From: a virus
Taxonomy: Duplodnaviria; Heunggongvirae; Uroviricota; Caudoviricetes
IMG/VR virus record: IMGVR_UViG_2579778773_000004
Location: 1 to 17,454 of that record
Direction: 5' to 3' (one strand)
DNA: 17,454 nucleotides
The notes under the pieces were generated by a model. It had not been told where the DNA came from. It did not search any database and saw nothing but the letters and a program-made list of their open reading frames with translations. The translations under genes and the position numbers were made by a program. Shown piece by piece: positions 1 to 15,231 of this stretch (position 1 is the first letter of the stretch; each line of letters opens with the position of its first letter).

Positions 1-147
1 GTTATTACCCGATCTCGATGGAAGTTATTGAGTGATCTCCTTTCATGAAAATACGCATTAATAAACAGTTTCTCAATTATTAGTCAGCATCATCAGAAGA
101 AACCCCTCTCCAAAGATAATTTTATAAAATAATATAAATGTCCACGC

Positions 148-200
148 CTGGCACGGAGTAGACTGGCTATCTAAGCTAAAGGTCTGCTGTGAGCGAAAAC
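148..200. repeat. Island repeat copy C: imperfect hairpin element (arms tggcacggagtagac 149-163 / gtctgctgtgagcga 182-196, ending gcgaaaac)
   Basis: By hand alignment it is about 70% identical to copy B (2793-2845). It shares the 5' ctggcacggag and 3' gcgaaaac ends. The arms can pair, including G:U pairs if read as plus-strand RNA. Confidence 0.6.
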
Positions 201-516
201 CGGACATGTACATATCTGTCAAAAAAGCAATTTTTAGCTGCCACTTCCAGTGGATGGCGGTCGGTCAGGAGATAATAGAAACAAAACATAATCATTAAAT
301 GACTGAAAAATGAAAATTGTATAAACATTCATCTTAGATGACAATTTCAAATGCATCTCTATAATTTCCCCTAGTTCAAACCAGACAGAATCTAACCACT
401 GCAAGTAGTTTTAAAATCATAGGAAAATAACGTGCATCAGCAGAAGCATATGGAAAATACACAACACATTTCAAAAATACATACTTTTAAAATTTTCATT
501 GACTGATATTTTTAAT

Positions 517-1152
517 TTATTTTCGTAAAAAAATCGACGCCCTATCCGGGTTTACTTTACATAGATGAGAAAGATATAGCGCCCTTCGATTAAATTTGCC
601 TTCAGTAAGGTCATCAATGTTTTTCCTGAATGGGTACTTAATCCGTGCAGCTATGTCAAAGTCACTAATGCTTGCATGAGCTTTGGTAAGTTTAGCTATC
701 CCATAAGTGCCATAGCCAAAGTAGCAACAGGATATATATGCTATGCAGATATCATCTGCTGTTGTTGCTTTCCTGATAAGAATGGCTAATATTTGCTCTC
801 TTATTTTTCTTCGAACTGTTTTCTCATATCTCTTAGTTATTGTTCTAACAAACTGTTGGTCTATAGTACTTGCGCCTTGATGAATGTTTTTAAATAATCT
901 CAGATATATAGTTCTTAAAATAGCAACTGGATCAACTCCCCTGTGTAATAGTTGCCGATGATCCTCAGCCACTCTTAATATATCAATTAAAGATAAAGAT
1001 ATAGATCTTTCACTTATCGAACTAAGCCTTATATAATCAATACATTTATAATAATCTTCCATAATACTTTTAACCCTGAATTTAAAAACCATTTCTGCCA
1101 ATAGCAAGTATGGCAATGACAGTAAGGTAATCAAAAAGCGCTTCGCTGCCAT
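517..1152 (-). CDS. GT51-family (MtgA-like) peptidoglycan glycosyltransferase homologue with an N-terminal membrane anchor, 211 aa from the ATG at 1152
   Basis: The ORF carries the ordered GT51 motifs AEDHRQLLHRGVD (EDxxxxxHxGxD), GASTIDQQ (GxSTITQQ), RRKIRE (RKxxE), YISCCYFGYGTYGIA and KYPFR. Motif spacing resembles E. coli MtgA as I recall it. The N-terminus has a hydrophobic segment, FLITLLSLPYLLLAEMVF. I moved the start to the ATG at 1150-1152, which has an AGGAG Shine-Dalgarno 8 nt upstream. That start overlaps the end of the upstream ORF by 22 nt. Confidence 0.7.
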   Translation of the reverse strand: MAAKRFLITLLSLPYLLLAEMVFKFRVKSIMEDYYKCIDYIRLSSISERSISLSLIDILRVAEDHRQLLHRGVDPVAILRTIYLRLFKNIHQGASTIDQQFVRTITKRYEKTVRRKIREQILAILIRKATTADDICIAYISCCYFGYGTYGIAKLTKAHASISDFDIAARIKYPFRKNIDDLTEGKFNRRALYLSHLCKVNPDRASIFLRK

Positions 1153-1679
1153 TTCACGTCTCCTGATGTATCTGCAGCGGTGGACCAAAATTTGCCATGC
1201 ATAGCATCTGCATTCACCTTTTGGAAATACAGCAAAATGGTATAACTCCTTAACTCACCTTCCATTTTTATATTCAATGAGGCATGATTTTTCCTTAAGT
1301 AATTTCTCTTAATCACCCCTCGAACCTCTCCAATACTTCTATGCTTACCAGTGTATGGTCTTATATTATTATTGTTTTCAACGTCTTTTGTTTTCTCAAT
1401 AAACCCTTCAATATTATTGTTGTCACATATTAAAGTCAGTGTATAAAACGTTTTTAAATTCAAGTAAGGATTATACGCAGATTTTAGTGTTTTACATTCA
1501 ACTTCAAAGACGCCCGAAAAATTTGGTGGCGGTTTAATATATTCTTTGAATATAAAAATCAATACAGCCGCAATAAGAGTAGCAACAGCACCACTTAAGA
1601 TTTGATTTGTGGAAATAAAGGTTAGAGATGGCTCAAGCCATTCCCAAAATATGTTGAAAAAATCAGTAAATTTATTCAT
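1131..1679 (-). CDS. Hypothetical single-pass membrane protein (182 aa), the upstream partner of the GT51-like gene
   Basis: ATG start at 1677-1679. One clear hydrophobic helix (ILSGAVATLIAAVLIFIF) is followed by a roughly 135-aa Asn/Lys-rich soluble domain. I recognise no motif. The 3' end overlaps the start of the next gene, which suggests translational coupling. The Shine-Dalgarno is weak. Confidence 0.55.
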   Translation of the reverse strand: MNKFTDFFNIFWEWLEPSLTFISTNQILSGAVATLIAAVLIFIFKEYIKPPPNFSGVFEVECKTLKSAYNPYLNLKTFYTLTLICDNNNIEGFIEKTKDVENNNNIRPYTGKHRSIGEVRGVIKRNYLRKNHASLNIKMEGELRSYTILLYFQKVNADAMHGKFWSTAADTSGDVKWQRSAF

Positions 1680-2180
1680 AAATTTCTTTTGATAGTATGT
1701 TTTTTATATGATGTTACATTTTTGAGAAAAAAGCAACTTCGCCGATTAAAAACTATCTCGCTGGAATTTATGGGCATCATGTTATGAATACATTCTTATC
1801 CCATAGGGAATAAAACCCTATCTATAGAATAAAAATCCAAATTTTATCTTAATAAATCAGATAAAAGATACTTATACTACAAAGGTACTTGTGTAAGATC
1901 AAACTTTTAATCCTATAAGTTATAGATTGAAGCAACTGTGACTTATAGTGCGCACACTTAAGAATCTCCGATGACGATGGTAGCAGGAGACAACTTTTGA
2001 CAACTCACTCCTATTACCAACTTACTGACTTGCTCCGCGTTGAGAGATTTATAGTTATGCCAGCACTGTCCGCTTCTGGCACATTGCGGAAGGGCTAACG
2101 GCCCGGAGTAAGTGAGTAACGGATGTTTGCAAGCACTCTTACTGCTGACAATGATCGCATCCAAGATAAAATAGGTGGTG

Positions 2181-2696
2181 TCAAGGTACAGGTTCACCAA
2201 TATAAGTGTGTGTGCAGCAACGACATGTCACCTTAACGTCATCTCTTGTGATTGAAAGGTTTACCTGTTGCAGAATTCCATTCTCATCAACAAACAGACC
2301 TGGGTAAAAACTGCTTTCACCAATGCAGACTAAATCCCTTCGCTGATGCTCATGTAGCGCGACCAACCAGAATACCGGCTCGGTGGTATCAAGACGTCCA
2401 CATACTTCGCTGAATATTTCATTCCACGGCTTGCCAATCTCTTTGATCAGAAAATAAAACAACGGTGTGTAGTCTCGGCCACGCTTCTGTCTGCTATGCA
2501 TTGTCTCGCGCTTTACCAGTAGCTCATCTCCGACTTTTTTGCGATTTCGTTCCCACCGATACTCAGCACCCGGATTATTAGAATGGTGCCGCGTCGTCGT
2601 GTTGACGCTGCGATATAGTTTACGGGACTTATTCTGCTGATGAATACGCATAGCTCGATCTCGTACATCCTTTCTTTTGTGGGCCAGTAGCCCCAT
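2181..2696 (-). CDS. Hypothetical basic protein (171 aa) with an Arg/Lys-rich N-terminal half and a C-terminal CxCC cluster
   Basis: ATG at 2694-2696 with AAGG about 7 nt upstream. The N-terminal roughly 75 aa are rich in R/K/H, and the C-terminus contains VTCRCCTH. I recognise no family. The local GC (about 40-57% on sampled lines) is higher than in the flanking island genes. Confidence 0.5.
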   Translation of the reverse strand: MGLLAHKRKDVRDRAMRIHQQNKSRKLYRSVNTTTRHHSNNPGAEYRWERNRKKVGDELLVKRETMHSRQKRGRDYTPLFYFLIKEIGKPWNEIFSEVCGRLDTTEPVFWLVALHEHQRRDLVCIGESSFYPGLFVDENGILQQVNLSITRDDVKVTCRCCTHTYIGEPVP

Positions 2697-2792
2697 TCAG
2701 ACCTTGTGTTACTGTATAAAAAATGAACACCCTTAAAGGCTGTATCATTCTGCTCAAATACCATCCTACTGACAACTACCAAAGGTCGGATT

Positions 2793-2845
2793 CTGGCACG
2801 GAGCGGACAATCAAGTAGAACTGAAGGCCCGCTATGTGCGAAAAC
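2793..2845. repeat. Island repeat copy B: imperfect hairpin element (arms tggcacggagcgg 2794-2806 / ccgctatgtgcga 2829-2841, ending gcgaaaac)
   Basis: It lies between the metallopeptidase stop (2883) and the 171-aa ORF start (2696). It is homologous to copies A and C. Pairing is 11 of 13 positions if read as plus-strand RNA. Confidence 0.6.
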
Positions 2846-2882
2846 AGACAGACACAGATTGATCACAAACATACCTGAACCA

Positions 2883-3812
2883 TCAGGATTTTATATCCTT
2901 GTGTGGCTCTAATCCTTCAGAAAGGACTTTATCAAATGCAGCATATTGCCTTTGTAATTTACTTTCACATTCATACAGACTCTTTAAACTAACATCATCC
3001 ATAGATTGAAAGAGTCTTTTGTTATCAACTAAATAGGAGTATGCATTAAAAATAGAAACATCCATTATATCTTTCAGTTCTTCATCAGATAGTTTAGTCT
3101 TTTTACTTAAATGCTTAATCACATGTGACTGCAATGCATTTGCGCGAACCATGGCGGGAGGATATTTGCTATTCTTCCCTTCCAATTTACATAGAAAATT
3201 AAAGAAAAAAAATATTGATGTTAAAGATAAACTAACAAGTGTTTTCTCTTCTATTTTTTTCTCCGGGGCCTTTTTTATTGTATTTAAGACGACATCTGCA
3301 ACAAAGTATGCTGAGAATACATCTGCATCATACTCCATTAATGTTTTAATCTGATCTTCACTAAAATCTTCATCGACTACATTGTACCCCATTGAATAAA
3401 CTTGGTAATCACCAATCAGGTTTATTTCTTTACTTTTGGCTAATGATAAGTGTCCACGAGCGACATGTCCAAGTTCATGACCGAAAATATGGTGCCAAAT
3501 AAAGACACACCCTAACGCAACTGGAGCTTCCTTTTCTTTCAAGTCAGGGTATTCTCTCATGAAGAATTCTATATTTTCAGAAAGAATGTCAAACGTTATT
3601 GGTATCAACCCACTCAATAAAATAATATGGAAATTATTGTCTTTTTTTTGTGCGTGAGCATTAAGGTTAAAATCGTCCTTAATGTGCAGAGCTATTTTTT
3701 TACCATCCTCTTCAATAGCGGAGTTTATCTCTATCAATCCTTTTTTGAAGGTATCGTAAACAGGCAAGAAAAAACCACTTTCTATTTTCGAAATTTCATC
3801 ACGGGTCATCAT
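2883..3812 (-). CDS. ImmA/IrrE-type (M78, COG2856-like) zinc metallopeptidase, 309 aa, with an uncharacterised C-terminal domain
   Basis: HELGH is encoded at 3465-3479 within IWHHIFGHELGHVARGH. It is followed about 40 aa later by EYDADVFSAYF, which fits the ExxAxxF(A/S) third-ligand helix of ImmA/IrrE peptidases. The start is ATGATG, with AGGTGG 6 nt upstream. The gene is very AT-rich. Confidence 0.7.
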   Translation of the reverse strand: MMTRDEISKIESGFFLPVYDTFKKGLIEINSAIEEDGKKIALHIKDDFNLNAHAQKKDNNFHIILLSGLIPITFDILSENIEFFMREYPDLKEKEAPVALGCVFIWHHIFGHELGHVARGHLSLAKSKEINLIGDYQVYSMGYNVVDEDFSEDQIKTLMEYDADVFSAYFVADVVLNTIKKAPEKKIEEKTLVSLSLTSIFFFFNFLCKLEGKNSKYPPAMVRANALQSHVIKHLSKKTKLSDEELKDIMDVSIFNAYSYLVDNKRLFQSMDDVSLKSLYECESKLQRQYAAFDKVLSEGLEPHKDIKS

Positions 3813-3869
3813 ATTTCCACCTTTAACATGAAATCTAATTCTAATTGATAGGTCTACTTAGTTTCGCTC

Positions 3870-3898
3870 ATTGTACTATTTTATTAAAGTGGGTTGAA
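3870..3898 (-). promoter_or_regulatory. Candidate sigma70 promoter for the metallopeptidase gene (-35 TTCAAC, 17-nt spacer, -10 TACAAT on the minus strand)
   Basis: The minus strand reads ttcaac-ccactttaataaaatag-tacaat, with the -10 hexamer ending 57 nt upstream of the ATG at 3812. The -10 matches 5 of 6 and the -35 matches 3 of 6. AT-rich DNA yields such matches easily. Confidence 0.3.
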
Positions 3899-3935
3899 GG
3901 TTACATTTTTATATAGCATGTCTACTGTCCCTTTG

Positions 3936-3977
3936 TGGCACAGAGCGGACTGTCAGATTAGTTTTTACTCTGTGCCA
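3936..3977. repeat. Island repeat copy A: perfect 10-bp inverted repeat tggcacagag (3936-3945) / ctctgtgcca (3968-3977) with a 22-nt loop
   Basis: It lies between the G stop (4012) and the metallopeptidase start (3812). Its left half, tggcacagagcggac, matches copy B tggcacggagcggac at 14 of 15 positions. No U-tract follows on either strand. Confidence 0.65.
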
Positions 3978-4011
3978 TAGATGAGTAATCTCACACCAGA
4001 TCTAATACGAT

Positions 4012-4590
4012 TTATTGTGGCATTTCAGGCCATTCTATATCCGGAGCATCTTCCGGCTGAACGCGATTCAGTAGCACACGGTATTTTTTCCAGTGTGTCA
4101 GACTTAACTTTTCTTCCTCGGTAGCCATATCTAAATCGACAGCATCCTGCAGCGTGGCAATAATTTCACCTGCATATGCAATCAGCTCTTTCTTCTGAGA
4201 GTCAGCCGCTCTGACAAGCGCATCACGCTCTGCATTCTCATCATTCACCCACGCATTTCCGTTCCATTTCTGATAATCCCCATCCGGGGAAATGGCTGTC
4301 ACGTCTGGAGGTAATGCGCCAAGTTCAGAAATATAAATGGCTGCTCCTGTTTTTGTTTCATAGACAGTCTTTCCACGATGGTCTTCCACCAGATCCCATT
4401 TCATTTCATCTGCATTGAAAACGGCGGCAAAACCCACCGGAATATCTGGAGGTGCAATGTCTGTACTGTTTGCAGGAAGACCTGTATGCGGCGGAATATA
4501 TGCGTCACTTTCGCCAATAAATTCATTGGTTCCATCAAGTAAATTGAAAACGCGGATAGTTTGTGTCTCTGCACTCATTCTGAAAGTCAT
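4012..4590 (-). CDS. G: Tail fibre assembly chaperone (P2 gpG / Tfa family)
   Basis: It sits directly after H with a TAATG stop/start overlap. The sequence has Tfa-like features (N-terminal [22 protein letters not shown]; C-terminal [12 protein letters not shown]-type motif). At 192 aa it is longer than P2 gpG as I recall it, which is consistent with a swapped fibre/chaperone module. An alternative start at M5 is possible. Confidence 0.85.
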
Positions 4591-6365
4591 TATGCCAGCC
4601 TCACAATATAGTTATACGCAACGTTTTTTACGGTGTTCTCTGAATTACCTGTGGCACTTACAGTGACGGTATGACTATGCGCGCCAATCGCAATGGAATG
4701 GCTGTGAGCACCAATGCCAACCGTGTGATTATGCTGACCAATGTCGACTGTATGGGCGTGTGCTCCCGCAGAGCTTGACACCTGGTTGGTTCCTGATACC
4801 TGTACGCGTTGTTTACCCCCGATGGAGTCACCACCGTAACGACCACCGACAGTGTGTGTATGCGCTCCCGTATTGTTTGTCGTTTTTGTGCCGTGGTTAA
4901 ACGTGCTGACCGTTTTTGTCCCGTAATCAAACGAACTGGTTGTTTTCGTCCCTAAATCCGTACTGGATGCACTGGCACTGTGGGTATGTGATTTAATTCC
5001 GTCCTGTTCCTGTGATAATACGGCGCGACCACTGGCGGGTTTGCCCTTGATTGTCCAGCCGCGCATATCTGGAATCACCCCTGACGGATAAGCTACTGCA
5101 AGCAGGGGATAGGCTGCTTTATCAAAAGTCTGCCCCTGCATCAGGGCATAGCCTGTAGGTACTGAATCAGAAGGCCACGGGATTGGAGCACCTACCGGAA
5201 AGTTGTTGTACCCGTCATGATGAATCAACTTCCAGCCTTTAAAAACACCTGCGCAAACTGCCGCAAAACCGATTACATCTCCATTAAAATCAATGCCAAT
5301 AACAGTATTGTATCCCTGAGTATTGCTGTGTGCAGAGTTGATGTAGTGCTTCCAGGTGTGTCCTCCAGGCATTCCATTCTTTGCTGAGGAAGCATTAAAA
5401 AAGCCACCACGCGTACGTAAATCAGTAGCAATATCACTTATATTTTCGGCGTACTCATTTAATCCCGCTCCTTTAGGTACTCGCTTGTTTGCATTGTCAT
5501 TAGCAGCTTTCACTGCTTTCGGAGTCGCGGCAAGCGTTTCAGAATCGCTGTTGGTGGCACTACTTAGCTGGACAAGCCCTTTTCGTGCCGTGGTGGCGTC
5601 CTGTGCGGTGTATTTGCCATTAGCAAGGTCATATGCTGTCTTAACCGCCTTTGGCGTTGCTGCGAGCGTCTCAGATTCGCTGTTGGTGGCACTACTTAGC
5701 TGAACAAGACCTTTTCGCCCCGTGCTGGCGTCCTGAGCGGTATATTTTCCGTTAGCAAGGTCATACGCTGCCTTAACCGCCTTCGGCGTTGCGGCCAGCG
5801 TTTCAGATTCACTATTGGTCGCGCTGCTTAACTGAGTAAAACCTTTTGCAGTCAGTGAGGCGTCCGGATGGCGTCGTGACTGTTCGTGCTCTGCAATTTT
5901 GTCATCAACGTAATCCTGCGTCGCCATCACCGTTGTGGTGTCGATGGTCAGATCCACTGAGGCCACACTGCTGACGATAATGACCATGCGGCAGGTCTGC
6001 GAACGTCCTGAGCCTTCGGCAAGGGCAGGCTTATAACTTTCGGCCATGTTCGCCACGGCAATTAACGCACCGGTATCATCGTACAGACCAAGTTCACGCA
6101 TCCAGAAACCGCCCACCTCCGGCGGGATGACCAGCTCTGCGATAATATAATTACTGTGTCGATTGTCCTGACTGATTTTATTCAGGGCATGTCGCCAGAC
6201 CTCATTAACAAGTTTTGTCTGTCCGGCATCCGGCACCGGCAATTGACCGCCACCGTCCCCGACGGCCATCGTGGTAATGTTGACCTTCCTGCCTCCCGGT
6301 GCAGTCGCCGCTGCCAGCTTTGCTGCACCGGCGGTAGTGATAACGGTTTGGAACTTTACGCTCAT
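4590..6365 (-). CDS. H: Tail fibre protein (P2 gpH-like N-terminus, divergent receptor-binding C-terminus), 591 aa
   Basis: The N-terminal roughly 170 aa ([24 protein letters not shown]...[29 protein letters not shown]) closely match P2 gpH as I recall it. Fibre repeats, a collar-like segment ([28 protein letters not shown]...IPDMRGW) and HxH repeats follow. Confidence 0.95.
5487..5855 (-). repeat. Three tandem 129-nt (43-aa) phage tail-fibre repeats inside H ([39 protein letters not shown]-type)
   Basis: Residues about 171-293 of H contain three consecutive near-identical units. The nucleotide periodicity also shows up as the repeated [15 protein letters not shown] in the antisense ORF 5356..5703. 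Confidence 0.9.
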
Positions 6366-6375
6366 TATTCCTCAC

Positions 6376-6906
6376 TTATCCTGGGTAAACCGTAATAACA
6401 TCGCCGTCATAAGCCACACCACCGGCAAACAGATAACCGGGGATGTCCTGGGTAATATTCAGACCAATAAGGTGACGACTTGCAGGTTTGGCATCGGCAA
6501 TCAGCCGTTCCATTTCCAGATACATCTCCTCCGTGATGCCGCTTTCCAGTACGCCGATATCAAGCCGGAAGGTGCCGGGCGGGTCGCTGTTTTCCCACCA
6601 CTCCGTCACGTTGATGAGATAGCCGAGCGGCTCCACCACACGGCGAATCGCACCAATAGTGCCCTTATGGCAGTGAATGAAATACGCATCGCGGATAACG
6701 GCGCGTTTTGTCGCTTCCGGCCACTTTTCATCCCAGCGGTCAACCGAAAATGACCACGCCAGCCACGGCAGCAGATTTGCCGGACAGGTGTCCGGGTTCC
6801 ACAGCTCACGAATACTGACCGGCGTTTTTTCAATTTCCGCACAGGCTTTTGCGGCGGCAACTTCAAGCGGTGATGAGCCTGTCGGCAGCAGTCGCGAATC
6901 ATTCAT
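6376..6906 (-). CDS. I: Baseplate/tail protein gpI
   Basis: 176 aa, the same length and position as P2 gpI between J and H. Its start overlaps the J stop. The sequence (MNDSRLLPTGSSPLEVAAAKA...) matches my recollection of P2 gpI. Confidence 0.9.
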   Translation of the reverse strand: MNDSRLLPTGSSPLEVAAAKACAEIEKTPVSIRELWNPDTCPANLLPWLAWSFSVDRWDEKWPEATKRAVIRDAYFIHCHKGTIGAIRRVVEPLGYLINVTEWWENSDPPGTFRLDIGVLESGITEEMYLEMERLIADAKPASRHLIGLNITQDIPGYLFAGGVAYDGDVITVYPG

Positions 6907-7807
6907 CCGAGCCTCCGGTCACGACGCTGTATTCGGTACAGAAAGACGCCTGCGTACTGTTGAGCACGATGTCGGCCAGTGGTGCAGCCAGTTCGACACG
7001 CTGCACGCCTTCCACATGCAAAGCGGCATAAATGGCAGACAGACGGATGTCGCGCCCCAGCCGGTGCTGTGCCGTGATATACGCTTCCAGTTCTTTCACG
7101 GCGGCCGCGCGAATGGGTTCTCTTTCAGGACCAGGGTAAAGGTAAAGCGTGGCGTTTATCTGGTATTCAACGATGGCAGCAGACTGCACGTTCACACGAT
7201 CGGCCACCGGTCTGACGTCCTCGCCATTAAGGGCGTTACGCACCACAGCCAGCAGGTCTTCGGATGCGACACCGTTATTTTCACGTGACAGCACAGAGAT
7301 GGTGACACAGGCCGGAGACGGACTGGTGACAGAGATATCCGCGACACGCCCGTCGGCACTGCGACCATGATACTGATAGGCGCCCACCGACCCGGCGACG
7401 CTTAAACCTTCAAACGCCTGCTGAATACGCAGACGATAATCCGTGTCAGATTCCATCACTGCCGGTGTCGGCGGGATGGTCGAATCATCTGCCGGGGTGA
7501 TAATCAGGCGCGCGGTGTTGTAATTGGCACCAATCACATCAAGGTCATTACCAGCGGCACAGGCCAGCATCACCGCCCGTGCGGCCTCATTCACACGCTG
7601 ACGCCAGATAAGCTCACGATAAGCATTTTCCTCCAGCAGTTTGACGAGAGGCTCGGATTCCAGCGTCAGGGTACGGGCAACCGCCTCCTGCTGGTCTTCC
7701 GGGTAAAGGGAAATCAGTGTCGCCTTGCGTTCGGCAAGAATGGTTTCAAAGTCCAGCTCCTCGACCACATCCGGTGCGGGTAGCTGGTTCAGGTCGATAA
7801 TCGGCAT
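6899..7807 (-). CDS. J: Baseplate wedge protein gpJ (T4 gp6-like)
   Basis: 302 aa with P2 synteny W-J-I. The N-terminus MPIIDLNQLPAPDVVEELDFETILAERKA is typical of gpJ. Confidence 0.93.
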   Translation of the reverse strand: MPIIDLNQLPAPDVVEELDFETILAERKATLISLYPEDQQEAVARTLTLESEPLVKLLEENAYRELIWRQRVNEAARAVMLACAAGNDLDVIGANYNTARLIITPADDSTIPPTPAVMESDTDYRLRIQQAFEGLSVAGSVGAYQYHGRSADGRVADISVTSPSPACVTISVLSRENNGVASEDLLAVVRNALNGEDVRPVADRVNVQSAAIVEYQINATLYLYPGPEREPIRAAAVKELEAYITAQHRLGRDIRLSAIYAALHVEGVQRVELAAPLADIVLNSTQASFCTEYSVVTGGSDE

Positions 7808-7811
7808 GGTT

Positions 7812-8159
7812 TCAACTCACAGGGATGGTTAACGAAAGTTGCTGGCCGGTGTCGTTGTGCTGGCCGTTTAACGTAACTGTCATTCGCCCGTCAAAACTGC
7901 GCTCAGTGGTGACGGATGACAGGGTGACGCGGGGTTCCCATTTCAGCACCGCCATGTAACAGGCGACCTTAATCTGCAACTCAAGCGCCGGGGTCTGCGG
8001 CTGGTCAATCATTGACGCCAGCAACGAGCCGTAATCACGACGCATCACCCGTGAGCCGACCGGTGTGCGCAGGATATCGCCGATACTCTGGCTGATATGC
8101 TCAAGGTCAGTGACAGTCAGGCCATCACTGCAATTCATTCCGAGATAACGCGCTGTCAT
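7812..8159 (-). CDS. W: Baseplate wedge protein gpW (T4 gp25-like)
   Basis: 115 aa with an ATGA overlap with the V stop. The SIGDILRTPVGSRVMRRDYGS motif is typical of the GPW/gp25 family. Confidence 0.93.
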   Translation of the reverse strand: MTARYLGMNCSDGLTVTDLEHISQSIGDILRTPVGSRVMRRDYGSLLASMIDQPQTPALELQIKVACYMAVLKWEPRVTLSSVTTERSFDGRMTVTLNGQHNDTGQQLSLTIPVS

Positions 8160-8791
8160 AGAGGACTCCCGGTTGTGCCGCCGCTGTCGCCGGGGTGTTT
8201 ATGGGTATGCAGCACCTTACCGTTTGATGAGAGTTCACCACCGGTGTGTTCAATGTTGCCGCGCATCGTCCCACCCTTCTGCACTTCCAGCGTGCCGGTA
8301 GTCAGTTTGTTAGTGCAGACCACCTCCGGTGTGTCCAGGGTGACGCGGGTTGATGCTTTCACCATGACCACCGGCACCGTGGCAGTAACAGAATCAGAAG
8401 CCGTCACGCTGGCCGTTTTAATTCCGCTTACCGTGAGTGCACTGGTTTCGGGTTCATACTCAATCACCGCCCCGTCAGGGAAACGGATATGCAGGGCATC
8501 CGCCGACGCAGACGGCGCGGGGTTATCGCCGGAATAAATCCCCGGCAGAACGAACGCCGTGTCGAGTTCACCGCCCACAGCCAGAATCAGCACCTGTTCC
8601 CCCACGGAAGGTGCCCACCATGTGCGCGAACGTCCGGCACGATGGGTCAGCCACTGAAGCCAGTCGGTGCACATGCCGCCGGTCTGCACACGGCAGCGAC
8701 CGGCGTTAAGGTCGGTTTCGACGATAATGCCGGTGCGGATCATGTTGCGCAGTGCGCGCGCGAGTTCCTGAATATTTGCGAGAGTGTTCAT
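8156..8791 (-). CDS. V: Baseplate central spike protein gpV
   Basis: 211 aa, first gene after the S-V intergenic gap, as in the P2 V operon. The C-terminal HTHKHPGDSGGTTGSPL tip motif is typical of P2 gpV. Confidence 0.93.
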   Translation of the reverse strand: MNTLANIQELARALRNMIRTGIIVETDLNAGRCRVQTGGMCTDWLQWLTHRAGRSRTWWAPSVGEQVLILAVGGELDTAFVLPGIYSGDNPAPSASADALHIRFPDGAVIEYEPETSALTVSGIKTASVTASDSVTATVPVVMVKASTRVTLDTPEVVCTNKLTTGTLEVQKGGTMRGNIEHTGGELSSNGKVLHTHKHPGDSGGTTGSPL

Positions 8792-8803
8792 AACGGGAAG
8801 GAT

Positions 8804-8825
8804 GCCGCCGGGTCATACCGGCGGC
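8804..8825 (-). other. GC-rich perfect hairpin (gccgccgg / ccggcggc, 6-nt loop) in the S-V intergenic region
   Basis: An 8-bp perfect inverted repeat lies 33 nt downstream of the S stop and about 12 nt upstream of the V ATG. On the minus strand it is followed by ATCCTTCCCGTT, which is only weakly U-rich. In P2 the O-operon/V-operon boundary lies here. Its role as a terminator, attenuator or leader structure is not resolved. Confidence 0.3.
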
Positions 8826-8857
8826 AATGTGACGATGAGGTGTCAGGAATGGCACAA

Positions 8858-9310
8858 CTAACGGTCGAGGTGAGCCAGAATAATCTCTTCAATCATCTGC
8901 ACATCCTCACCGGTAAAGCCGAGCAGAGGACGCGCCGGATAATCAATTTTCTTACCGTCTTTCCGGGTTTCTTCCGACAGACCGAACTGATGCACGCTGG
9001 CGATTTTCGGTGACTTCCCGCCGTAAAACTCCATTGATGCCTGTTCCGGGCTGGCGTGGATATGCAAAAAACGACTGGTGATAAGTTTCGCAAACATTTT
9101 TCGCTTAACACGACCAGTCTTTTTTCTGGCGCTCTGCTGCTGGCGTGGCGCGTAGGGTGTGCCGTCCGGGGCTTTCTGAGCCATCACCCGACGCTGCTGA
9201 CTCTGCCGCAGACGCTTCGCCAGCTCTGCACTCAGCCGCCGACGCCCTGACGGTGACAGCGACTCAATAAGTCCGGTCAGCCGGTCTTCAAAACGCTTAA
9301 ACTCATTCAT
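8858..9310 (-). CDS. S: Tail completion protein gpS
   Basis: 150 aa with P2 synteny R-S. Its start overlaps the R stop by 8 nt. The sequence MNEFKRFEDRLTGLIESLSPSGRRRLSAELAKRLRQSQQ matches my recollection of P2 gpS. Confidence 0.9.
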   Translation of the reverse strand: MNEFKRFEDRLTGLIESLSPSGRRRLSAELAKRLRQSQQRRVMAQKAPDGTPYAPRQQQSARKKTGRVKRKMFAKLITSRFLHIHASPEQASMEFYGGKSPKIASVHQFGLSEETRKDGKKIDYPARPLLGFTGEDVQMIEEIILAHLDR

Positions 9311-9770
9311 CCCACTTGCTCACCAGTTCGCCATTGATATAAAGCTCCATCGGGCGGGTGACCGGCTCCGGCGGCGTGGGTTCCGGGATATTCTTCACAT
9401 GCAGCGCGCCGTCCACCTCACTGACCAGCGTGCGCTCGGTCAGCATCAGGCTGATGCTGATATCAAAGCTGCTGTCATTGTTGATGTCTGCATAAAACGT
9501 GAAGCCCTTTTTCTGGCCTTCGTCGGTGGTCATGATGTCGGGCTGATTTTCCCGCAGCCACGCCAGCACCGGCACGATGAGCAGGTCAAAATCACCGGTA
9601 AAGTCGGTCACAATGACATTGAGCGTGTAACGCTTTTCGAATGACAACGACGCCGCCAGTGTGGAGGCAATACTCCCGTTATCCACGAATATCCGCAGCA
9701 TATCGGGGTTAGTTTTCAGCACCGTGACGGCATCAGTCAGCGCCCTGCGCAGGCTGTCGGGTTTGAGCAT
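9303..9770 (-). CDS. R: Tail completion protein gpR
   Basis: 155 aa with P2 synteny after the lysis cassette. The sequence MLKPDSLRRALTDAVTVLKTNPDMLRIFVDNGSI matches my recollection of P2 gpR. Confidence 0.9.
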   Translation of the reverse strand: MLKPDSLRRALTDAVTVLKTNPDMLRIFVDNGSIASTLAASLSFEKRYTLNVIVTDFTGDFDLLIVPVLAWLRENQPDIMTTDEGQKKGFTFYADINNDSSFDISISLMLTERTLVSEVDGALHVKNIPEPTPPEPVTRPMELYINGELVSKWDE

Positions 9771-10023
9771 CGTTTTCGTCCTGACAGTGTTTAATCATTT
9801 TTACCTGGCTGGCACAACGTGCCAGCGCGTTCTCGAGCTGCCGGATATCGGCACTTAAATCGCCGTTCGTCTCCGGGTCACTGCCCGGCATCGGGCAAAG
9901 GCTCACTTTCGGGCAGGCGTTGGCGACAATCACTGGCGTCGGTGCAGGCGGGGCGCTGGTGCAACCGGCGCACAGCATCAGGCAGGTCAGCACCGTACCA
10001 GCGGCGAAAATCTTCGTTTTCAT
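9733..10023 (-). CDS. lysC: LysC, an Rz1-like outer-membrane lipoprotein spanin subunit embedded out of frame in lysB and running into R
   Basis: The ATG at 10021-10023 lies inside ORF 9733..10140 and gives 96 aa: MKTKIFAAGTVLTCLMLCAGC..., a signal peptide ending in a lipobox-like LCAGC, then a Pro-rich segment. The architecture is the same as P2 lysB/lysC. Confidence 0.8.
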   Translation of the reverse strand: MKTKIFAAGTVLTCLMLCAGCTSAPPAPTPVIVANACPKVSLCPMPGSDPETNGDLSADIRQLENALARCASQVKMIKHCQDENDAQTRQPAQGAD

Positions 10024-10303
10024 TAAGTAACCTCGTGATGGTTTTCTCGCGCTGTGCTTCACGCTTCGCGGCGTTCTCCAGTTCCTGACGCAGTGCCACC
10101 TGCGCCAACTCGTTTTTGTCTGCCCTGGTGAGGGCAGCATGAAGCTGATTTTTCAGCATGATGATGGTCGTCTGCTGTTCACTGGCGACGTTGTTCACCC
10201 TGTCCAGCGAGGCGCGCAGGCTGGCGTTTTCATGCTTCGCCAGAAACAGTCCCGCCACCGCCAGCGATAACAACACAACCAGCACAATCATCAGCTTTGA
10301 CAT
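9878..10303 (-). CDS. lysB: LysB, an Rz-like inner-membrane spanin subunit
   Basis: 141 aa with an N-terminal TM segment (LMIVLVVLLSLAVAGLFL) followed by a coiled-coil-like charged region. Its position after lysA matches P2. Confidence 0.85.
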   Translation of the reverse strand: MSKLMIVLVVLLSLAVAGLFLAKHENASLRASLDRVNNVASEQQTTIIMLKNQLHAALTRADKNELAQVALRQELENAAKREAQREKTITRLLNENEDFRRWYGADLPDAVRRLHQRPACTDASDCRQRLPESEPLPDAGQ

Positions 10304-10716
10304 GGTTCCCGCCCCTCAAGACGCTGACGGCAGGCCGTGCGTATCAGCCGGAAAAACAGCGACGCCACGAGATAAATCAGCGCAGTAAAAATCCACCCGG
10401 TGGCAACCAGCGAGATAAACGTCGCCACCATCACTACCAGAGCCGCCGCCCGTCTGCACCACGGCACCGGCTGCAAAAACAGCGACGTGACAATCTTCAC
10501 GGCCAGCGATTCCGGTGGCAACTCCCGCCCGTAGCGTTCCAGCACATACTCCGTGGCATACACGCCAACACCACCGGCAACCACACAGATAACCGTCACC
10601 AGAATCGCCCAGGCAGCGACAAAATTGACGGCCACGCTCTGCGGGTAAATCAGGGACAGTGCCAGCATCAGCGCCAGCGACACATTCAGCATCAGTGAAA
10701 GGGATAATTTCTTCAT
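10291..10716 (-). CDS. lysA: LysA, a multi-pass membrane lysis-timing protein (antiholin-like)
   Basis: 141 aa with about 4 hydrophobic segments. It lies between K and lysB, as in P2. Confidence 0.85.
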   Translation of the reverse strand: MKKLSLSLMLNVSLALMLALSLIYPQSVAVNFVAAWAILVTVICVVAGGVGVYATEYVLERYGRELPPESLAVKIVTSLFLQPVPWCRRAAALVVMVATFISLVATGWIFTALIYLVASLFFRLIRTACRQRLEGREPCQS

Positions 10717-10730
10717 GGTGTTTACTCCGT

Positions 10731-11228
10731 TTAAGCCAGTACGCCGCCAGCGGTACGCCAGACGGTGACCAGTTTTTCCAGTGAATGCTCACGCTGACCG
10801 TAACCGGCACCCGGCAGGGACGCCCAGATATTTCGACAGCGTGAAATGGCGCGCTCAATACGTCCCGCCCGGATGTCATCCAGCGCACCGCGTTCGCGGA
10901 TCAACTGAATGGCGAGTCTGTCCTGTGACAGCGGACTGAAATCCGGCAGGGCAAGCTGTTTGCGGTAATGCGGCCAGAACAGGTAAAGCTGCTGATAGCG
11001 ACCGGAGGCCGTGGATTTTTCACCGCGACGGTTAAACACCTTCGCCGGTCGGCCATGTGCGAACGGGTGGTCACTGTAGTCGGTGAAGATTTCCGGCTTC
11101 CCGTCCAGTCCGGTGACTATCACGTCATAGCCACGGTTTTTCGTCAGCGGATGATTCGCCGTCCCTTCGGACACCGCCAGCATGTCGAGAAAGGCGGCGA
11201 TATTCTGGTGCGTGTTAATTACCGGCAT
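10731..11228 (-). CDS. K: Endolysin gpK (lambda R-like lysozyme/transglycosylase fold)
   Basis: 165 aa. The sequence MPVINTHQNIAAFLDMLAVSEGT...GRYQ carries the conserved catalytic-Glu context (SEGT). It has a TAATG overlap with holin Y. Confidence 0.93.
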   Translation of the reverse strand: MPVINTHQNIAAFLDMLAVSEGTANHPLTKNRGYDVIVTGLDGKPEIFTDYSDHPFAHGRPAKVFNRRGEKSTASGRYQQLYLFWPHYRKQLALPDFSPLSQDRLAIQLIRERGALDDIRAGRIERAISRCRNIWASLPGAGYGQREHSLEKLVTVWRTAGGVLA

Positions 11229-11509
11229 TACGGTTTCCCCCTGCCCTTAAAGCGGCGCTGAATGGCAATCTCAATCACCTGATAACCGGCGATACCCAGC
11301 ATGGAGCCGATGCCGCACACCGCAGGCAGTGACAGGTCAGGAAACTGCACCAGAACAACACCGGCAACCATCGAGACAAAACCACCGAGCAACATGCGCC
11401 CGATAAACAGACGCGGGGTGATGGGTTCACCACCGGCAAGCACCTTGCCGACAACAATCAGCACCCCAATCATGAAAAGCGACAGGACGCTTTTTTCTTC
11501 TGCTGTCAT
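11228..11509 (-). CDS. Y: Holin gpY
   Basis: 93 aa with three hydrophobic segments and a basic C-terminus (RRFKGRGKP). Position and length match P2 Y. Confidence 0.9.
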   Translation of the reverse strand: MTAEEKSVLSLFMIGVLIVVGKVLAGGEPITPRLFIGRMLLGGFVSMVAGVVLVQFPDLSLPAVCGIGSMLGIAGYQVIEIAIQRRFKGRGKP

Positions 11510-11512
11510 GCG

Positions 11513-11716
11513 TTACTCCCACAGATTGACAGTTTCAGCCACGGGCGCGGTCTGAACGTCGGGCAGTTCGACGGCGGTGCCGTGTGGCAGCACCGCACCC
11601 AGTTCAGCCAGTCCCGGATTTGCGGCGAGCACGGTCTCAACCACGCCCTCAGTGCGCCCGTAATACCGGACACAAATGGCGTCGAGCGTGTCGCCCTGTA
11701 GCGCAAAGGTCTTCAT
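11513..11716 (-). CDS. X: Tail protein X (LysM-like)
   Basis: I trimmed the ORF-track 90-aa ORF to the ATG at 11714-11716, which gives the 67-aa sequence MKTFALQGDTLDAICVRYYGRTEGVVETVLAANPGLAELG... matching my recollection of P2 gpX. It has a TGATG overlap with the L stop. Confidence 0.9.
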   Translation of the reverse strand: MKTFALQGDTLDAICVRYYGRTEGVVETVLAANPGLAELGAVLPHGTAVELPDVQTAPVAETVNLWE

Positions 11717-12225
11717 CAGATTTGACTCACGATGCAGCGCGGCTTGTCCTGGATGCGCGCCACTGCCCAGCGCATATCCCGCCACAACTCATCAATGGTG
11801 CTGTCAATGCTGTCGGCCTTCTTGTCGCCTTTCGCACTGGCATCCACGCCGCGGTAACGCTCATAAAGCGACGCGGTCGCCATCGCACACACGGCGCGCT
11901 CGTAGTAAAATACTTTGATGCTTTCACCGTCGATGTCGTCCGCCGGGACGTCCGCCAGACGCGTAAAACCGGCGGCAATTTTCTGTTCGCGGTACTCGTA
12001 CAGCTCCGCATTCGTCTCCGCCATACCTGACTTGATGGCCTCACGCAGACGGGCGGGGGCGACGGTCTGCTCAAGGCGCATACGTTCCCGGACGCGCTTC
12101 GGGTCGATATCGGGAAAAAAGAACGTGTTTTTAATCACCGGCTCGTCGCCTGCCGGTTGCGGGATGACCACCGTACCCTCACCGGATACAGGAGCCTCCT
12201 TTCGCGGAATAATCAGCGTCATCAT
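11716..12225 (-). CDS. L: Head completion/stabilisation protein gpL
   Basis: I trimmed to ATGATG at 12220-12225 (GAGGT Shine-Dalgarno upstream), giving 169 aa, MMTLIIPRKEAPVSGEGTVV..., the length and sequence I recall for P2 gpL. Confidence 0.9.
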   Translation of the reverse strand: MMTLIIPRKEAPVSGEGTVVIPQPAGDEPVIKNTFFFPDIDPKRVRERMRLEQTVAPARLREAIKSGMAETNAELYEYREQKIAAGFTRLADVPADDIDGESIKVFYYERAVCAMATASLYERYRGVDASAKGDKKADSIDSTIDELWRDMRWAVARIQDKPRCIVSQI

Positions 12226-12324
12226 GACTACCTCTGAAAAGTCGGGCGGTGGACGCCGGTGCAGTGTCAGATGATTCACCCTCACTGACCGGCGTGCCGC
12301 CCTGGCGCGGGGCGCATTCGGTTG

Positions 12325-13068
12325 TTAACTGGCTTTCTTTTTCGGGCGTCCACGTTTTGCCGGGGTCACGCTCCGGGTCTTACGCGGGGTGCGGGTGACC
12401 GCTTTGGGCTGCGGCTCCGGCTTCGGTTTCAGCTCCCGCTCCAGTCGTTCAATCTCTTTTTTAACGCCTGCCTGACAGTCGAGCTGTGTCGCACGTTGCA
12501 GGTGCGCCAGCGCACCGGCGGCATCACCAGCGTCACGCAGAAACAGACCGGTGATTTTGTGCAGATTTGCGCGCACTTCATCAGGCATGTCAGCCGTGGC
12601 GGTCAGTTCAAGGGTGTCCGTCAGCAGGCGGGTATCCACGGATTCACCGGCAGCGTGGGCGCGCATGGCCGCGAGCGCGACCTCCTCGGTGAACATGTAC
12701 GGCGGGGTGCGGCGGTGTTTACCCGGCATGGTCAGACCGTACTTCAGGGCATAACGGGCAATCTCCAGCGCACCGGCAATATCGCCGGTATCCAGACGCC
12801 ACAGCATGACCGTCATCAGAATGTCATCCTGTGCACCTTTGCCCTGCTCCAGCACGCCGTTCACCCACGGCAACCAGAACGGCAGCAGTTCGCGTTTTTT
12901 CGCGGCCTTCAGCTCTTTTGAATAAATCGCTTTCAGTGTGCGCTGGTCTGCGGCGAGCTTAACCAGCATCTGCTCATAGACAGTTGCATGTCGCAGCGGG
13001 GCGGCTTCCCGCTGCGCGGTCATCGCTGCCGAGACCCGCATCATGTGGCGCTGTGCGGGACTCGTCAT
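12325..13068 (-). CDS. M: Terminase small (endonuclease) subunit gpM
   Basis: 247 aa with P2 synteny N-M-L and a basic C-terminal tail (PRKTRSVTPAKRGRPKKKAS). Confidence 0.9.
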   Translation of the reverse strand: MTSPAQRHMMRVSAAMTAQREAAPLRHATVYEQMLVKLAADQRTLKAIYSKELKAAKKRELLPFWLPWVNGVLEQGKGAQDDILMTVMLWRLDTGDIAGALEIARYALKYGLTMPGKHRRTPPYMFTEEVALAAMRAHAAGESVDTRLLTDTLELTATADMPDEVRANLHKITGLFLRDAGDAAGALAHLQRATQLDCQAGVKKEIERLERELKPKPEPQPKAVTRTPRKTRSVTPAKRGRPKKKAS

Positions 13069-13071
13069 CGG

Positions 13072-14145
13072 TTACGCTCCCGGCTCTGCGGTCGCTTTAG
13101 CCGGTGTGGAGAAGTCACCGACCTTGATTTTTTCCACCAGACAACCGGCGGCGTAGTCTTCCACCACGTAATCAATGTTCATTGACTCGTAGTTCTCCAC
13201 GCGGTCGAGTTTCGGGTTTTCCTCAATCACGCGGCGATGGCTGTCATCCATGTAGTAGATGGACAGGTTTTCCAGCTTCGTGATGAGCATCGCATCCGCC
13301 GGGAAGTACGGGACGCGTACCGCTGGCAGGTTGCCGATGCGTTTCTGGCTGATGATGACGTCAGCGGCCAGCATTTCGCTGTTGTCCTGCTCCTTGTTGA
13401 CGATGGGAAAATACTTGTCCGCCAGTAGCTGACGTCCCACAATCACCACAAGGTCAGGTTCTTCCTGATACCACGGCTCAATCAGGTTGTTGGTCGCATC
13501 CATCACCAGTGCATCAAGGCTGGCATAATCACCGCCCTTACCCACGCGGATGACCTCAGAGGTGGTGCGGCCTTCCTCGTCAGTGACCTTGCTCATCACG
13601 CGCGCCGGGGCTTCATTGCGGTATTTCTGCAGCCAGCCGACCGCCACATCCTGCAGCATCGGATTACTGTTGCGGTCAGAGGTTTCGGCACGCTTCACGC
13701 CGTTAAAACCGGCCATGATGAAATCAAGGGACTGGCGTTTGATAATGGCGTTACGGATACGGAGCTGGAAATCCTGATAACGCGCCCACAGGTCCAGCGT
13801 TTTGTAGCGGATATAAAAATCGAAGTTAACCTGGTCGCATTCGTACTTGTTTGACGCCAGCTTCGAGAAGTCCTTCGGCTGACGCTCGGTGCCACCGGCG
13901 GTGTCGGTGGTGCTGGCAATGGGGCCGGTGACACCGATACCAATTTTTTCCCCTTTCATTTCGCTGACCGGCACAATGTTGATGCGGGTCAGAAAGTCAG
14001 AGGACTCCTGCATGGTGTTCATCAGGGTCTGGGTGACCGACGGTTCAACGGTGAATTTTTTCGACACATCACCGGCGTCGATGCCGTTCAGTTCGGCAAC
14101 ACGGGACAGGTAGGCATTAAATTTAAAACGGGTTTCCTGGCGCAT
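13072..14145 (-). CDS. N: Major capsid protein gpN
   Basis: 357 aa, the same length as P2 gpN. AGGA Shine-Dalgarno. The sequence MRQETRFKFNAYLSRVAELNGIDAGDVSKKFTVEPSVTQ matches my recollection. Confidence 0.95.
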   Translation of the reverse strand: MRQETRFKFNAYLSRVAELNGIDAGDVSKKFTVEPSVTQTLMNTMQESSDFLTRINIVPVSEMKGEKIGIGVTGPIASTTDTAGGTERQPKDFSKLASNKYECDQVNFDFYIRYKTLDLWARYQDFQLRIRNAIIKRQSLDFIMAGFNGVKRAETSDRNSNPMLQDVAVGWLQKYRNEAPARVMSKVTDEEGRTTSEVIRVGKGGDYASLDALVMDATNNLIEPWYQEEPDLVVIVGRQLLADKYFPIVNKEQDNSEMLAADVIISQKRIGNLPAVRVPYFPADAMLITKLENLSIYYMDDSHRRVIEENPKLDRVENYESMNIDYVVEDYAAGCLVEKIKVGDFSTPAKATAEPGA

Positions 14146-14203
14146 ATTTGTTCCTGAAATTAAGGGTTAATCGTGAAGGTTTTCCCGGACTGACTGACGC
14201 CGG

Positions 14204-15058
14204 TCAGCAGTTCGTCATCAGGGCGTCTCCGCCACCGCCGGTGGCCTTGCTGCGGCGCTGCTGGGTCAGACTTTCGGTGTTGTCGAGACTGTTTTTCAGG
14301 CGGGTGAATGCCTGGCTGGTTTCATCCGCCCTGTCAGTCACCTCCTGCTTAAGTGCGGAAAAGGCGTTTTCCATCTCAGCGAGGCGCTGCTCAGTGGCGC
14401 TCAGTTTTTCCTGCACATGTTCAGCAACAGCGGTCACCGCTTCATGCACGTCATTCAGACGGGCGTCATCGCTGGCCTGTTTGCGGCCAAAAATGGATTT
14501 CACCTTTTCGGTCAGGGCGGTGAACACGGTTTCAGGCAGGTCTTCAAATTCCAGCTCAACGGGCGTTGCCACTGAAATCAGGTTTTCAGGGCTTAATTTG
14601 AAGCGGTTCAGGGGGTTGTGTTTTGCCGTGCGGCAGAATTCCAGGTATTCCGTGCCGAGGCTTGCCGGGTCATCGGTGACGGCCAGACCCACCAGATAAC
14701 ATTTGCCGGTATTGGCAAAGTTCGGCTGAATTTCCATTGAGGTGTAGACCTTCTGCGCGGCCTTGTTCATCGCGATAAGGTCATCGGTCGGGGTGATTTT
14801 CGCAAACAGCGCCCATTTGCCTTTCAGCGCCGAATCATCGTCAATCTTTTCGGCCTTCAGTTCGACCACATCGCCATAACGCTTAAAAATACCGTCAGGC
14901 AGGATGCCGCGCAGATGTTCCAGGTTAATGCGGCAACCATAGACTCGCGGGTCAAAGGTTTCGGCCATTTCCTGAATATCCTGCGCACTGATGACACGCC
15001 CGTCACAGGTGTCACCCTCAACGCCGATACGAAAGAATTTTGAGACTTTTTTTGCCAT
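14204..15058 (-). CDS. O: Capsid scaffolding protein/protease gpO
   Basis: I trimmed to the ATG at 15056-15058, giving 284 aa, MAKKVSKFFRIGVEGDTCDGRVISAQDIQEMAETFDP..., the length and N-terminus I recall for P2 gpO. Confidence 0.93.
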   Translation of the reverse strand: MAKKVSKFFRIGVEGDTCDGRVISAQDIQEMAETFDPRVYGCRINLEHLRGILPDGIFKRYGDVVELKAEKIDDDSALKGKWALFAKITPTDDLIAMNKAAQKVYTSMEIQPNFANTGKCYLVGLAVTDDPASLGTEYLEFCRTAKHNPLNRFKLSPENLISVATPVELEFEDLPETVFTALTEKVKSIFGRKQASDDARLNDVHEAVTAVAEHVQEKLSATEQRLAEMENAFSALKQEVTDRADETSQAFTRLKNSLDNTESLTQQRRSKATGGGGDALMTNC

Positions 15059-15231
15059 TGTCAGGAGTCCTGAATAGTGATTAGAGGAGTCACATGTCGG
15101 CATCAGTTTCCCGACGATGCGCATCCTCTGCCATCAGTCCCGGATGGCTTATCACTGACACAACAGCACCTTAGCGAATCGCGGGGCGCGACTCAGTAGC
15201 CTTGCCGTGTATTCATCACGGCGAGGTATTC
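15059..15231. promoter_or_regulatory. Divergent intergenic region expected to hold the Ogr-dependent late promoters P_O (minus strand) and P_P (plus strand)
   Basis: A 173-bp gap lies between the divergently transcribed O and P genes, which is where P2 places P_O and P_P. I could not find an exact TGT-N12-ACA activator box by eye; the closest is TGG-N12-ACA at 15145-15162. The call therefore rests on synteny. Confidence 0.4.

Follow-up and report, generated by a model that had tools for sequence, protein, structure and literature searches.

A prophage gene between two copies of a repeat

This work concerns one gene in a stretch of 17,454 nucleotides (the window: positions 1 to 17,454 of IMG/VR record IMGVR_UViG_2579778773_000004), an E. 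coli prophage of the P2-like (Peduovirus) type. The gene encodes a protein of 309 amino acids, known to RefSeq as a "hypothetical protein". An initial annotation, made from the sequence, took the protein for an ImmA/IrrE-type peptidase orphaned from its usual helix-turn-helix (HTH) partner. I come to a different family, that of M48 proteases and the phage-exclusion protein Lit, and to a candidate role in defence against phage. The features on which the argument depends are these:

2883 to 3812, minus strand: coding sequence of the protease, 309 amino acids, resembling a soluble cytoplasmic zinc metallopeptidase, M48 superfamily and Lit-like (WP_047668714.1)
3817 to 3823, minus strand: strong Shine-Dalgarno sequence AAGGTGG, 4 nucleotides (nt) 5' of the protease ATG, read from the sequence
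3870 to 3898, minus strand: weak sigma70-like promoter candidate, TTCAAC-17 nt-TACAAT, matching the consensus at 8 of 12 positions
3927 to 3949, minus strand: 5' cassette-junction motif (copy 3 of the repeat), GTCCGCTCTGTGCCACAAAGGGAC on the gene strand, 63 nt after the gpG stop codon; homology breaks inside it
2785 to 2807, minus strand: 3' cassette-junction motif (copy 2), GTCCGCTCCGTGCCAGAATCCGAC, 76 nt after the protease stop codon; kept in Klebsiella variicola
4012 to 4590, minus strand: gpG, the P2 tail-fibre assembly gene, right edge of the Z/fun variable locus (phrog_105, E = 7e-90)
4590 to 6365: gpH, right of the cargo

The open reading frame (ORF) and its two motifs are as first described, with FGHELGHVARGH at residues 110-121 (HELGH at 112-116) and EYDADVFSAYF at residues 160-170 (EYDADVF at 160-166), and so is the strong Shine-Dalgarno sequence. 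The gene does lie between copies of a repeat, the second and third of three. The sigma70 promoter is less secure: a candidate site is present, within the DNA that accompanies the gene in Klebsiella, but it falls under the threshold of a consensus scan, which counts no more promoter-like sites in this region than in shuffled sequence.

The gene gpG lies to the right of the cargo. Directly to the left, as the near-identical strain CE0011b shows, comes the FI tail sheath gene, and this places the protease in the variable region between G and FI, the Z/fun locus. (CE0011b is 100% identical to the window from 57 to 4100 except for an extra IS2 insertion.) The GC content of the cargo region is 30-35%, against 55-60% in the phage core. 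This is the position that Vassallo et al. (PMC9519451) identified as a second defence-enriched locus of P2, with fun and three validated systems, and the locus is cited in PMC13586616 too.

A predicted zinc protease of the M48 superfamily

The family to which the protein belongs is a rare one. It amounts to 15 clusters among 5.8 billion proteins, and a search of 1.84 billion gives 109 representatives at E < 1e-3. A profile search for homologous loci yielded one species-representative genome and one IMG/VR contig, and a word-indexed profile search for further loci of the family added almost nothing. Even at blastn sensitivity the cassette that carries the gene is present in 2 of 5,426 complete E. 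coli genomes, and a tblastn search of 50,697 deposited phage genome records gave no match. Prophages, genomic islands and plasmids account for all the copies that were found. No published work on the family was found in the literature, including that on M48 proteases in phage defence, on Lit and family U49, and on single-gene zinc metalloprotease defence. The family is currently without annotation, and the gene is predicted to encode a zinc protease that has gone unannotated with it.

What members there are agree at the residues that would matter to such an enzyme. Across 40 diverse members there is no variation at H112, E113, H116, G120, H121, E160, A163, D164 and R223, and almost none at N51 and A52 (on a beta strand) and P218, which bears out the initial impression of an HExxH zinc metallopeptidase. 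The ratio of nonsynonymous to synonymous substitution rates (dN/dS) between six orthologues is 0.12-0.27, and it stays below 0.35 in every region of the gene. Every copy has an intact ORF preceded by a strong Shine-Dalgarno sequence. Judged from these sequences, purifying selection acts on the gene, which is no decaying remnant, and with the help of a structural model its gluzincin active site is predicted to be intact and under that same selection.

Then there is the question of which metallopeptidase it is. The 309-residue protein by itself says little: no significant match comes from Pfam, PHROGs, PADLOC or NCBIfam, the lone Pfam trace being an M48 match at the HExxH helix (13.2 bits, below the cut-off of 20.3), and phmmer against the PDB gave nothing relevant. 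The family is more informative. Pfam M48 (PF01435) is matched by 9 of the 40 members, and the gathering score of that profile is exceeded by members P0085 (32.3 bits), P0053 (32.0), P0087 (21.9) and P0120 (21.2). A profile search of the PDB has HtpX and BepA as its only matches, aligned through the NAxA strand and HExxH. The four hallmark motifs of M48 enzymes (HtpX, LoiP/YcaL, BepA and Ste24 among them) occur in order, invariant in the family or nearly so, namely NAxA (N51-A52), HExxH (H112/E113/H116), ExxAD (E160/A163/D164) and a C-terminal P-x4-R (P218/R223), and the set aligns to HtpX, BepA and LoiP. M48 enzymes end in HP...R, and E. coli LoiP carries the identical HExxHxxxGH motif. Profile searches could have pointed away from peptidases altogether; they point to M48 peptidases instead.

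The protein differs from the M48 enzymes in several respects, beginning with its own score below the M48 threshold. M48 includes envelope and membrane enzymes, whereas inspection of the 309-residue sequence turns up neither a signal peptide nor a lipobox nor transmembrane segments in any obvious form. With Lit the protein shares its helices at the N and C termini. And the gene rides on mobile elements in defence-type loci and is not a housekeeping gene.

The AlphaFold2 (AF2) model of the protein is a single fold (predicted local distance difference test, pLDDT, 82; predicted template modelling score, pTM, 0.84), running from an N-terminal helix through a three-stranded sheet, helices, the active-site helix, a low-confidence insert at residues 126-147 and the helix bearing the glutamate to four C-terminal helices. 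Foldseek against BFVD gives one full-length match, to an uncharacterised protein of a metagenomic myovirus (E = 4.5e-8). The initial annotation had set apart about 110 residues on the N-terminal side of the motifs and about 140 on the C-terminal side as separate domains of no recognised kind. That division does not stand, as those flanks hold the family-conserved N51-A52, P218 and R223 and belong to the same fold.

Lit as the closest characterised relative

Lit, from the e14 prophage of E. coli, is the long-isolated textbook case of phage infection being aborted by a protease from a single gene. When the family profile is aligned by hhalign with a 24-sequence profile of the Lit family (MEROPS U49; PF10463), the match covers 166 columns with 96% probability (E = 4.4e-9). 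The alignment pairs the beta strand, HExxHxxxxH and ExxAD, and it pairs the YPxxxxR of the family with Lit's THPxxxxR. Lit itself weakly matches Pfam M48, and its AF2 model (pLDDT 88.7) has the same order of secondary structure as the 309-residue protein, including two C-terminal helices. Because of this alignment and the common order of elements, the N- and C-terminal regions once thought unknown are read as parts of a Lit-/M48-type fold.

The two proteins are also alike in their circumstances: each is soluble and the product of a solo gene borne by a prophage (297 residues in Lit, 309 here), and HExxHxxxxH, ExxAD and P-x4-R follow one another in both with the same spacing logic. They differ in the strand motif, which is the M48-type NAxA in the present family and FxIRV in Lit, and in an insert of 25-30 residues that here separates the HExxH and ExxAD helices. 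Homology makes the protein a member of the M48 superfamily but not of U49. Its closest characterised relative, and the one most similar in architecture, is Lit, known as the cell-death peptidase of e14.

Lit's trigger is the Gol peptide and its substrate EF-Tu. Both are known, whereas the protease is likened to Lit from its sequence and predicted structure, and a number of results weigh against carrying the likeness further. Pfam U49 does not match the 309-residue protein at E <= 10, although it matches Lit at E = 1.7e-112. Neither PADLOC (PADLOC-DB v2.0.0, at E <= 1) nor PHROGs nor NCBIfam recognizes the protease, as already noted. The relation to Lit is remote, at about 16% identity. When single sequences are aligned by hhalign, Lit (61%), HtpX (66%) and LoiP (73.5%) fare similarly, and therefore homology gives the M48 superfamily, not Lit's substrate or trigger. 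The low-confidence insert at residues 126-147 is absent in Lit. A Foldseek search of the PDB with the AF2 model gave nothing below E = 0.27 (its top matches, to nuclear-receptor helices, were treated as noise). Finally, the position in a hotspot is circumstantial, since the variable loci of P2 also hold cargo with no part in defence, such as partition systems and toxins (PMC9122126).

A gene that travels alone

If the protease worked with a partner, the partner might be expected to stay with it. All-against-all BLAST of the neighbours at 10 distinct loci (that of the window and 9 others) finds no neighbour family common to three or more of them, and none has an HTH gene beside the protease. 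In the window, too, no HTH gene adjoins the protease, Pfam matching nothing at all in the neighbouring ORFs of both strands, which agrees with the initial annotation, as does the description of a self-contained single-gene module. It had been asked whether homologues are always solo and always in prophage hotspots: they are solo at all 10 loci, but the settings include islands and a plasmid besides the hotspots.

Those settings are varied. The homologue in K. oxytoca lies in a P2-like prophage between the integrase gene and the host's dadX, and that in Vibrio parahaemolyticus also lies in a prophage. In Dickeya it is at the edge of an integrative and conjugative element, adjoining a gene for a DUF4238 protein; one protein of the DUF4238 kind is enough for protection against T7 (PMC9122126). 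In K. variicola the gene is in an island, adjoining DUF5677 and umuDC, and further homologues are in other islands and prophage fragments. One viral contig, P2-like, has it at the tin/old hotspot, with gpA on one side and the portal gene on the other. The Colwellia homologue is near a PIN_8 gene, with one unannotated ORF between, and a plasmid of Vibrio gigantis carries a homologue of 27.6% identity directly beside AbiEi/AbiEii and a type I restriction-modification (R-M) system. The P2 Z/fun, P2 gpA-portal, AbiE with type I R-M, and DUF4238 settings uphold the idea of an anti-phage hotspot.

The limits of nucleotide homology tell how much DNA moves. Homology to the copies in Klebsiella and Dickeya covers the gene and short flanks and stops there; in K. 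variicola it spans window positions 3950 to 2791, the ends being at copies 3 and 2 of the repeat. The gene is a single-gene cargo cassette of about 1.16 kb (window positions from about 2791 to 3950) that travels alone. Taken together, an M48/Lit-like protease in a solo cassette is a description I hold with considerable confidence.

As a separate observation, the only likeness between the neighbourhoods of any two loci is the presence of umuD/umuC and a gene for an SRAP (YedK-like) protein near the homologues in the K. variicola island and in a metagenomic prophage fragment. This probably reflects related islands and not a functional linkage.

What the protease might do

I propose that the protease is a piece of prophage cargo that aborts infection by incoming phage in the manner of Lit. 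Going by homology, H112, H116 and E160 of the ExxAD helix would bind zinc, with E113 as the catalytic base. By analogy with Lit, and in view of where the gene resides, a lysogen would make the protease constitutively from the prophage and keep it latent. On superinfection, a product of the second phage would render a specific host protein (or phage protein) cleavable, a protein that in the Lit paradigm is a translation factor. Cleavage would abort the infection, and the clonal population and its resident prophage would be protected. A passage of PMC13581612 describes the precedent: Lit cleaves EF-Tu, arresting translation, after it senses a motif in the capsid protein.

How much of this is to be believed depends on the part. 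A role in defence for the cassette seems to me somewhat probable, and the suggestion in the initial annotation of a single-gene metallopeptidase survives as a candidate defence system, stripped of its M78 label. The specific Lit-like mechanism of abortive infection, built on analogy, is tentative and rather less likely than not. The explanation as a whole, as the best on offer, might as easily fail as hold. If it is right, then a second, distinct and mobile family of Lit architecture in the defence loci of P2 would show the strategy to be more general, and the family could reveal a new pair of trigger and target.

A rather unlikely possibility, but one that must be taken seriously, is that the protease is a functional moron with no part in defence. 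It might serve in counter-defence or competition between phages, cleaving a host immune protein or the repressor of a rival prophage, or it might serve in lysogenic conversion or protein quality control. The gene is mobile and under purifying selection, yet nothing points to a substrate. Many M48 proteases, HtpX and BepA for example, are quality-control enzymes. The full-length structural match in BFVD is to a myovirus protein that is itself uncharacterised, and the non-defence cargo in P2 variable loci has been mentioned. It would be easier to accept such a role if the contexts were not so repeatedly of the defence type (P2 Z/fun, tin/old, AbiE with R-M, DUF4238, PIN_8), if the gene, all found copies of which lie in prophages, islands and plasmids, had a match among the deposited phage genomes, and if Lit, alike in architecture and nearer than any other characterised protein, did not serve in phage exclusion.

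It might also be supposed that the protease is part of a multi-gene system with the other proteins of the locus: one of 156 residues, one of 182, one with a GT51-like transglycosylase domain, and one of 259. The five genes form a block that, at 99.7-100% identity, occurs in three contexts: P2 prophages, the chromosome of NB4833, and a conjugative IncF plasmid bearing the NDM-4 carbapenemase (NZ_CP050167.1, 108465-123391). Outside P2 the neighbours of the block are DUF2254, betT, IS1 and HTH/antitoxin genes. But sharing at near-identity is the mark of recent co-transfer, not of functional linkage. Among more divergent copies the protease cassette is seen to move on its own, homology stopping at the junction motifs, and no gene of the block recurs beside the homologues in Klebsiella, Dickeya, Vibrio, Colwellia and the viral contigs; the 156-residue gene is one of those absent. 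That gene has moreover a life of its own, its cassette being found with about 96% identity in 85 of the 5,426 complete E. coli genomes, against the 2 for the protease. A multi-gene system is very improbable. The next independent cassette is:

2181 to 2651, minus strand: gene for the 156-residue hypothetical protein WP_029397133.1, in a cassette (2091 to 2784) between motif copies 1 and 2

I find no more credible, and perhaps slightly less, the view of the initial annotation, that the protein is an ImmA/IrrE-type (M78) anti-repressor acting as an induction or regulatory switch, its Xre/ImmR-like HTH substrate encoded elsewhere or lost. There is a true resemblance here. M78 peptidases, such as CapP and the Xre-peptidase fusions of PD-lambda-2, are borne by mobile elements and have the same minimal gluzincin core, HExxH with a downstream glutamate on the next helix. 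An ExxA(N/D)xF helix downstream of HExxH is present in the protease and occurs in M78, but it is not diagnostic, as M48 and Lit have the same. One distant member of the family scores 14.1 bits with M78, where the cut-off is 22, and IrrE-labelled phage proteins are found among weak BFVD matches (E from 0.03 to 0.25).

Against this, Pfam M78 (PF06114) fails to match the 309-residue protein even at E <= 10 and matches 0 of the 40 members at E <= 0.01. An IrrE sequence, validated as PF06114 (E = 1.2e-22), aligns to the family profile by hhalign with 1.9% probability and no overlap of motifs, to be compared with 96% for Lit. The NAxA strand and YPxxxxR, invariant in the family or nearly so, belong to M48 and Lit and not to M78. 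Nor is there any sign of the partner, whether adjacent to the gene at the 10 loci or fused to it in longer members of the family; homologues that are always paired with an HTH gene, lost in this instance, are not what is seen. Proteases of the M48 and Lit types are not known to work with an HTH protein encoded next to them, and so the absence is expected and not anomalous. The description of the gene as an orphan falls with the label, and dropping both spares the search for a partner that is not expected to exist.

Last, that the gene is a decaying or catalytically dead remnant without function scarcely merits consideration, very rare though it is and annotated in no database, in the face of catalytic residues invariant in 40 diverse members, dN/dS of 0.12-0.27, and an intact ORF with a strong Shine-Dalgarno sequence in every copy.

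A motif at the cassette junctions

The repeat that bounds the cassette is 23 nt long and has three copies in the window, at 2068-2090, 2785-2807 and 3927-3949. Its degenerate core pattern matches the window 3 times, where 0.46 matches are expected by chance. On the gene strand it reads GTCCGC-TnT-GTGCCA-(G/A)AAGCGGAC. Each copy follows a stop codon, at 63 nt for gpG, 76 nt for the protease and 91 nt for the 156-residue gene, and the offset of 63 nt after gpG recurs in other P2-like contigs. Homology between the window and NB4833 breaks within the core of copy 3, and the K. variicola homologue retains a copy 83 nt after its own stop codon. Further copies are found at other loci:

NB4833 chromosome (locus L001): 13553 to 13566
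K. variicola island (locus L009): 9007 to 9020, and 6992
Locus L021: 3016 to 3029

A search of IMG/VR with a pattern of 17 specified bases finds the GTCCGCTTTGTGCCAGAAGCGGAC-type motif, about 24 nt long and hairpin-like, in at least 119 contigs, where a rough estimate of chance gives about 10 or fewer. In the IMG/VR matches listed, the unspecified positions of the motif are conserved too, and the flanks are unrelated. Among these same matches there is always a conserved gene upstream on the same strand (gpG, umuC or a gene of a replication module) and variable DNA downstream.

The predicted folds of the motif are inconsistent: in copies 2 and 3 GTGCCA pairs with a TGGCAC that lies upstream, in the K. 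variicola copy there is instead a short hairpin of TCCGCTT/AAGCGGA, and for copy 1 the fold is not better than that of shuffled sequence. Rfam matches nothing at the repeats in a search of window positions 1-4700, and the motif sequence was not found in the published literature. Two candidates were considered and rejected. A sigma54 promoter would have TGGCAC, which is present, but the spacing to GC is wrong and the site points away from the genes. A canonical intrinsic terminator would have a run of T after the motif, which this one lacks.

The motif may be a putative recombination site for the exchange of cargo at phage hotspots. A 2026 study of the P2 and P4 hotspots considers the recombination process behind cargo swapping still to be elucidated (PMC13586616), and a motif at cassette boundaries is a lead on that question. 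One might go further and imagine that the protease founds a new Lit-like family of abortive-infection proteins with its own trigger and target, and that it belongs to a series of single-gene cassettes, individually mobile, all of which finish with a GTCCGCTTTGTGCCAGAAGCGGAC-type recombination motif that swaps cargo at hotspots downstream of P2 gpG, umuC and replication-module genes. This larger scheme is speculative and improbable as it stands. Were it true, it would bring an integron-like logic to the defence loci of prophages and give a handle on the swapping of cargo in P2 and P4 hotspots.

Other occupants of the locus

The first 57 nt of the window are the terminus of ISEc12, an insertion sequence (IS) of the IS21 family that matches 1,695 E. 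coli genomes, in multiple copies. Therefore, in the source genome of the window, the cargo of the hotspot is interrupted by an IS. At the point of interruption, CE0011b and NB4833 run on into the gene for the 259-residue hypothetical protein.

The cassette of the 156-residue protein turns up elsewhere in company of some interest. In FDAARGOS_497 it is in an integrase-borne island at ychF, adjoining a gene for a 295-residue protein with the motif HEMEH. That protein was considered as a relative of the protease family and rejected (hhalign, 0.5%).

Within gpG, from 4049 to 4247 on the minus strand, there is a sub-threshold match to Rfam IS009 (RF02111), with 52.9 bits against a gathering score of 117 (E = 2.3e-10).

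The same hotspot contains a module of two genes in overlapping frames:

517 to 1152, minus strand: first gene of the module
1131 to 1679, minus strand: second gene of the module

One product, of 182 residues, has no recognisable domain. The other, of 211 residues, is a GT51 peptidoglycan transglycosylase domain and nothing else (Pfam Transgly, E = 1.6e-22; PBP1A-like by NCBIfam), and a module with a GT51-only protein is unusual cargo for the defence locus of a prophage.

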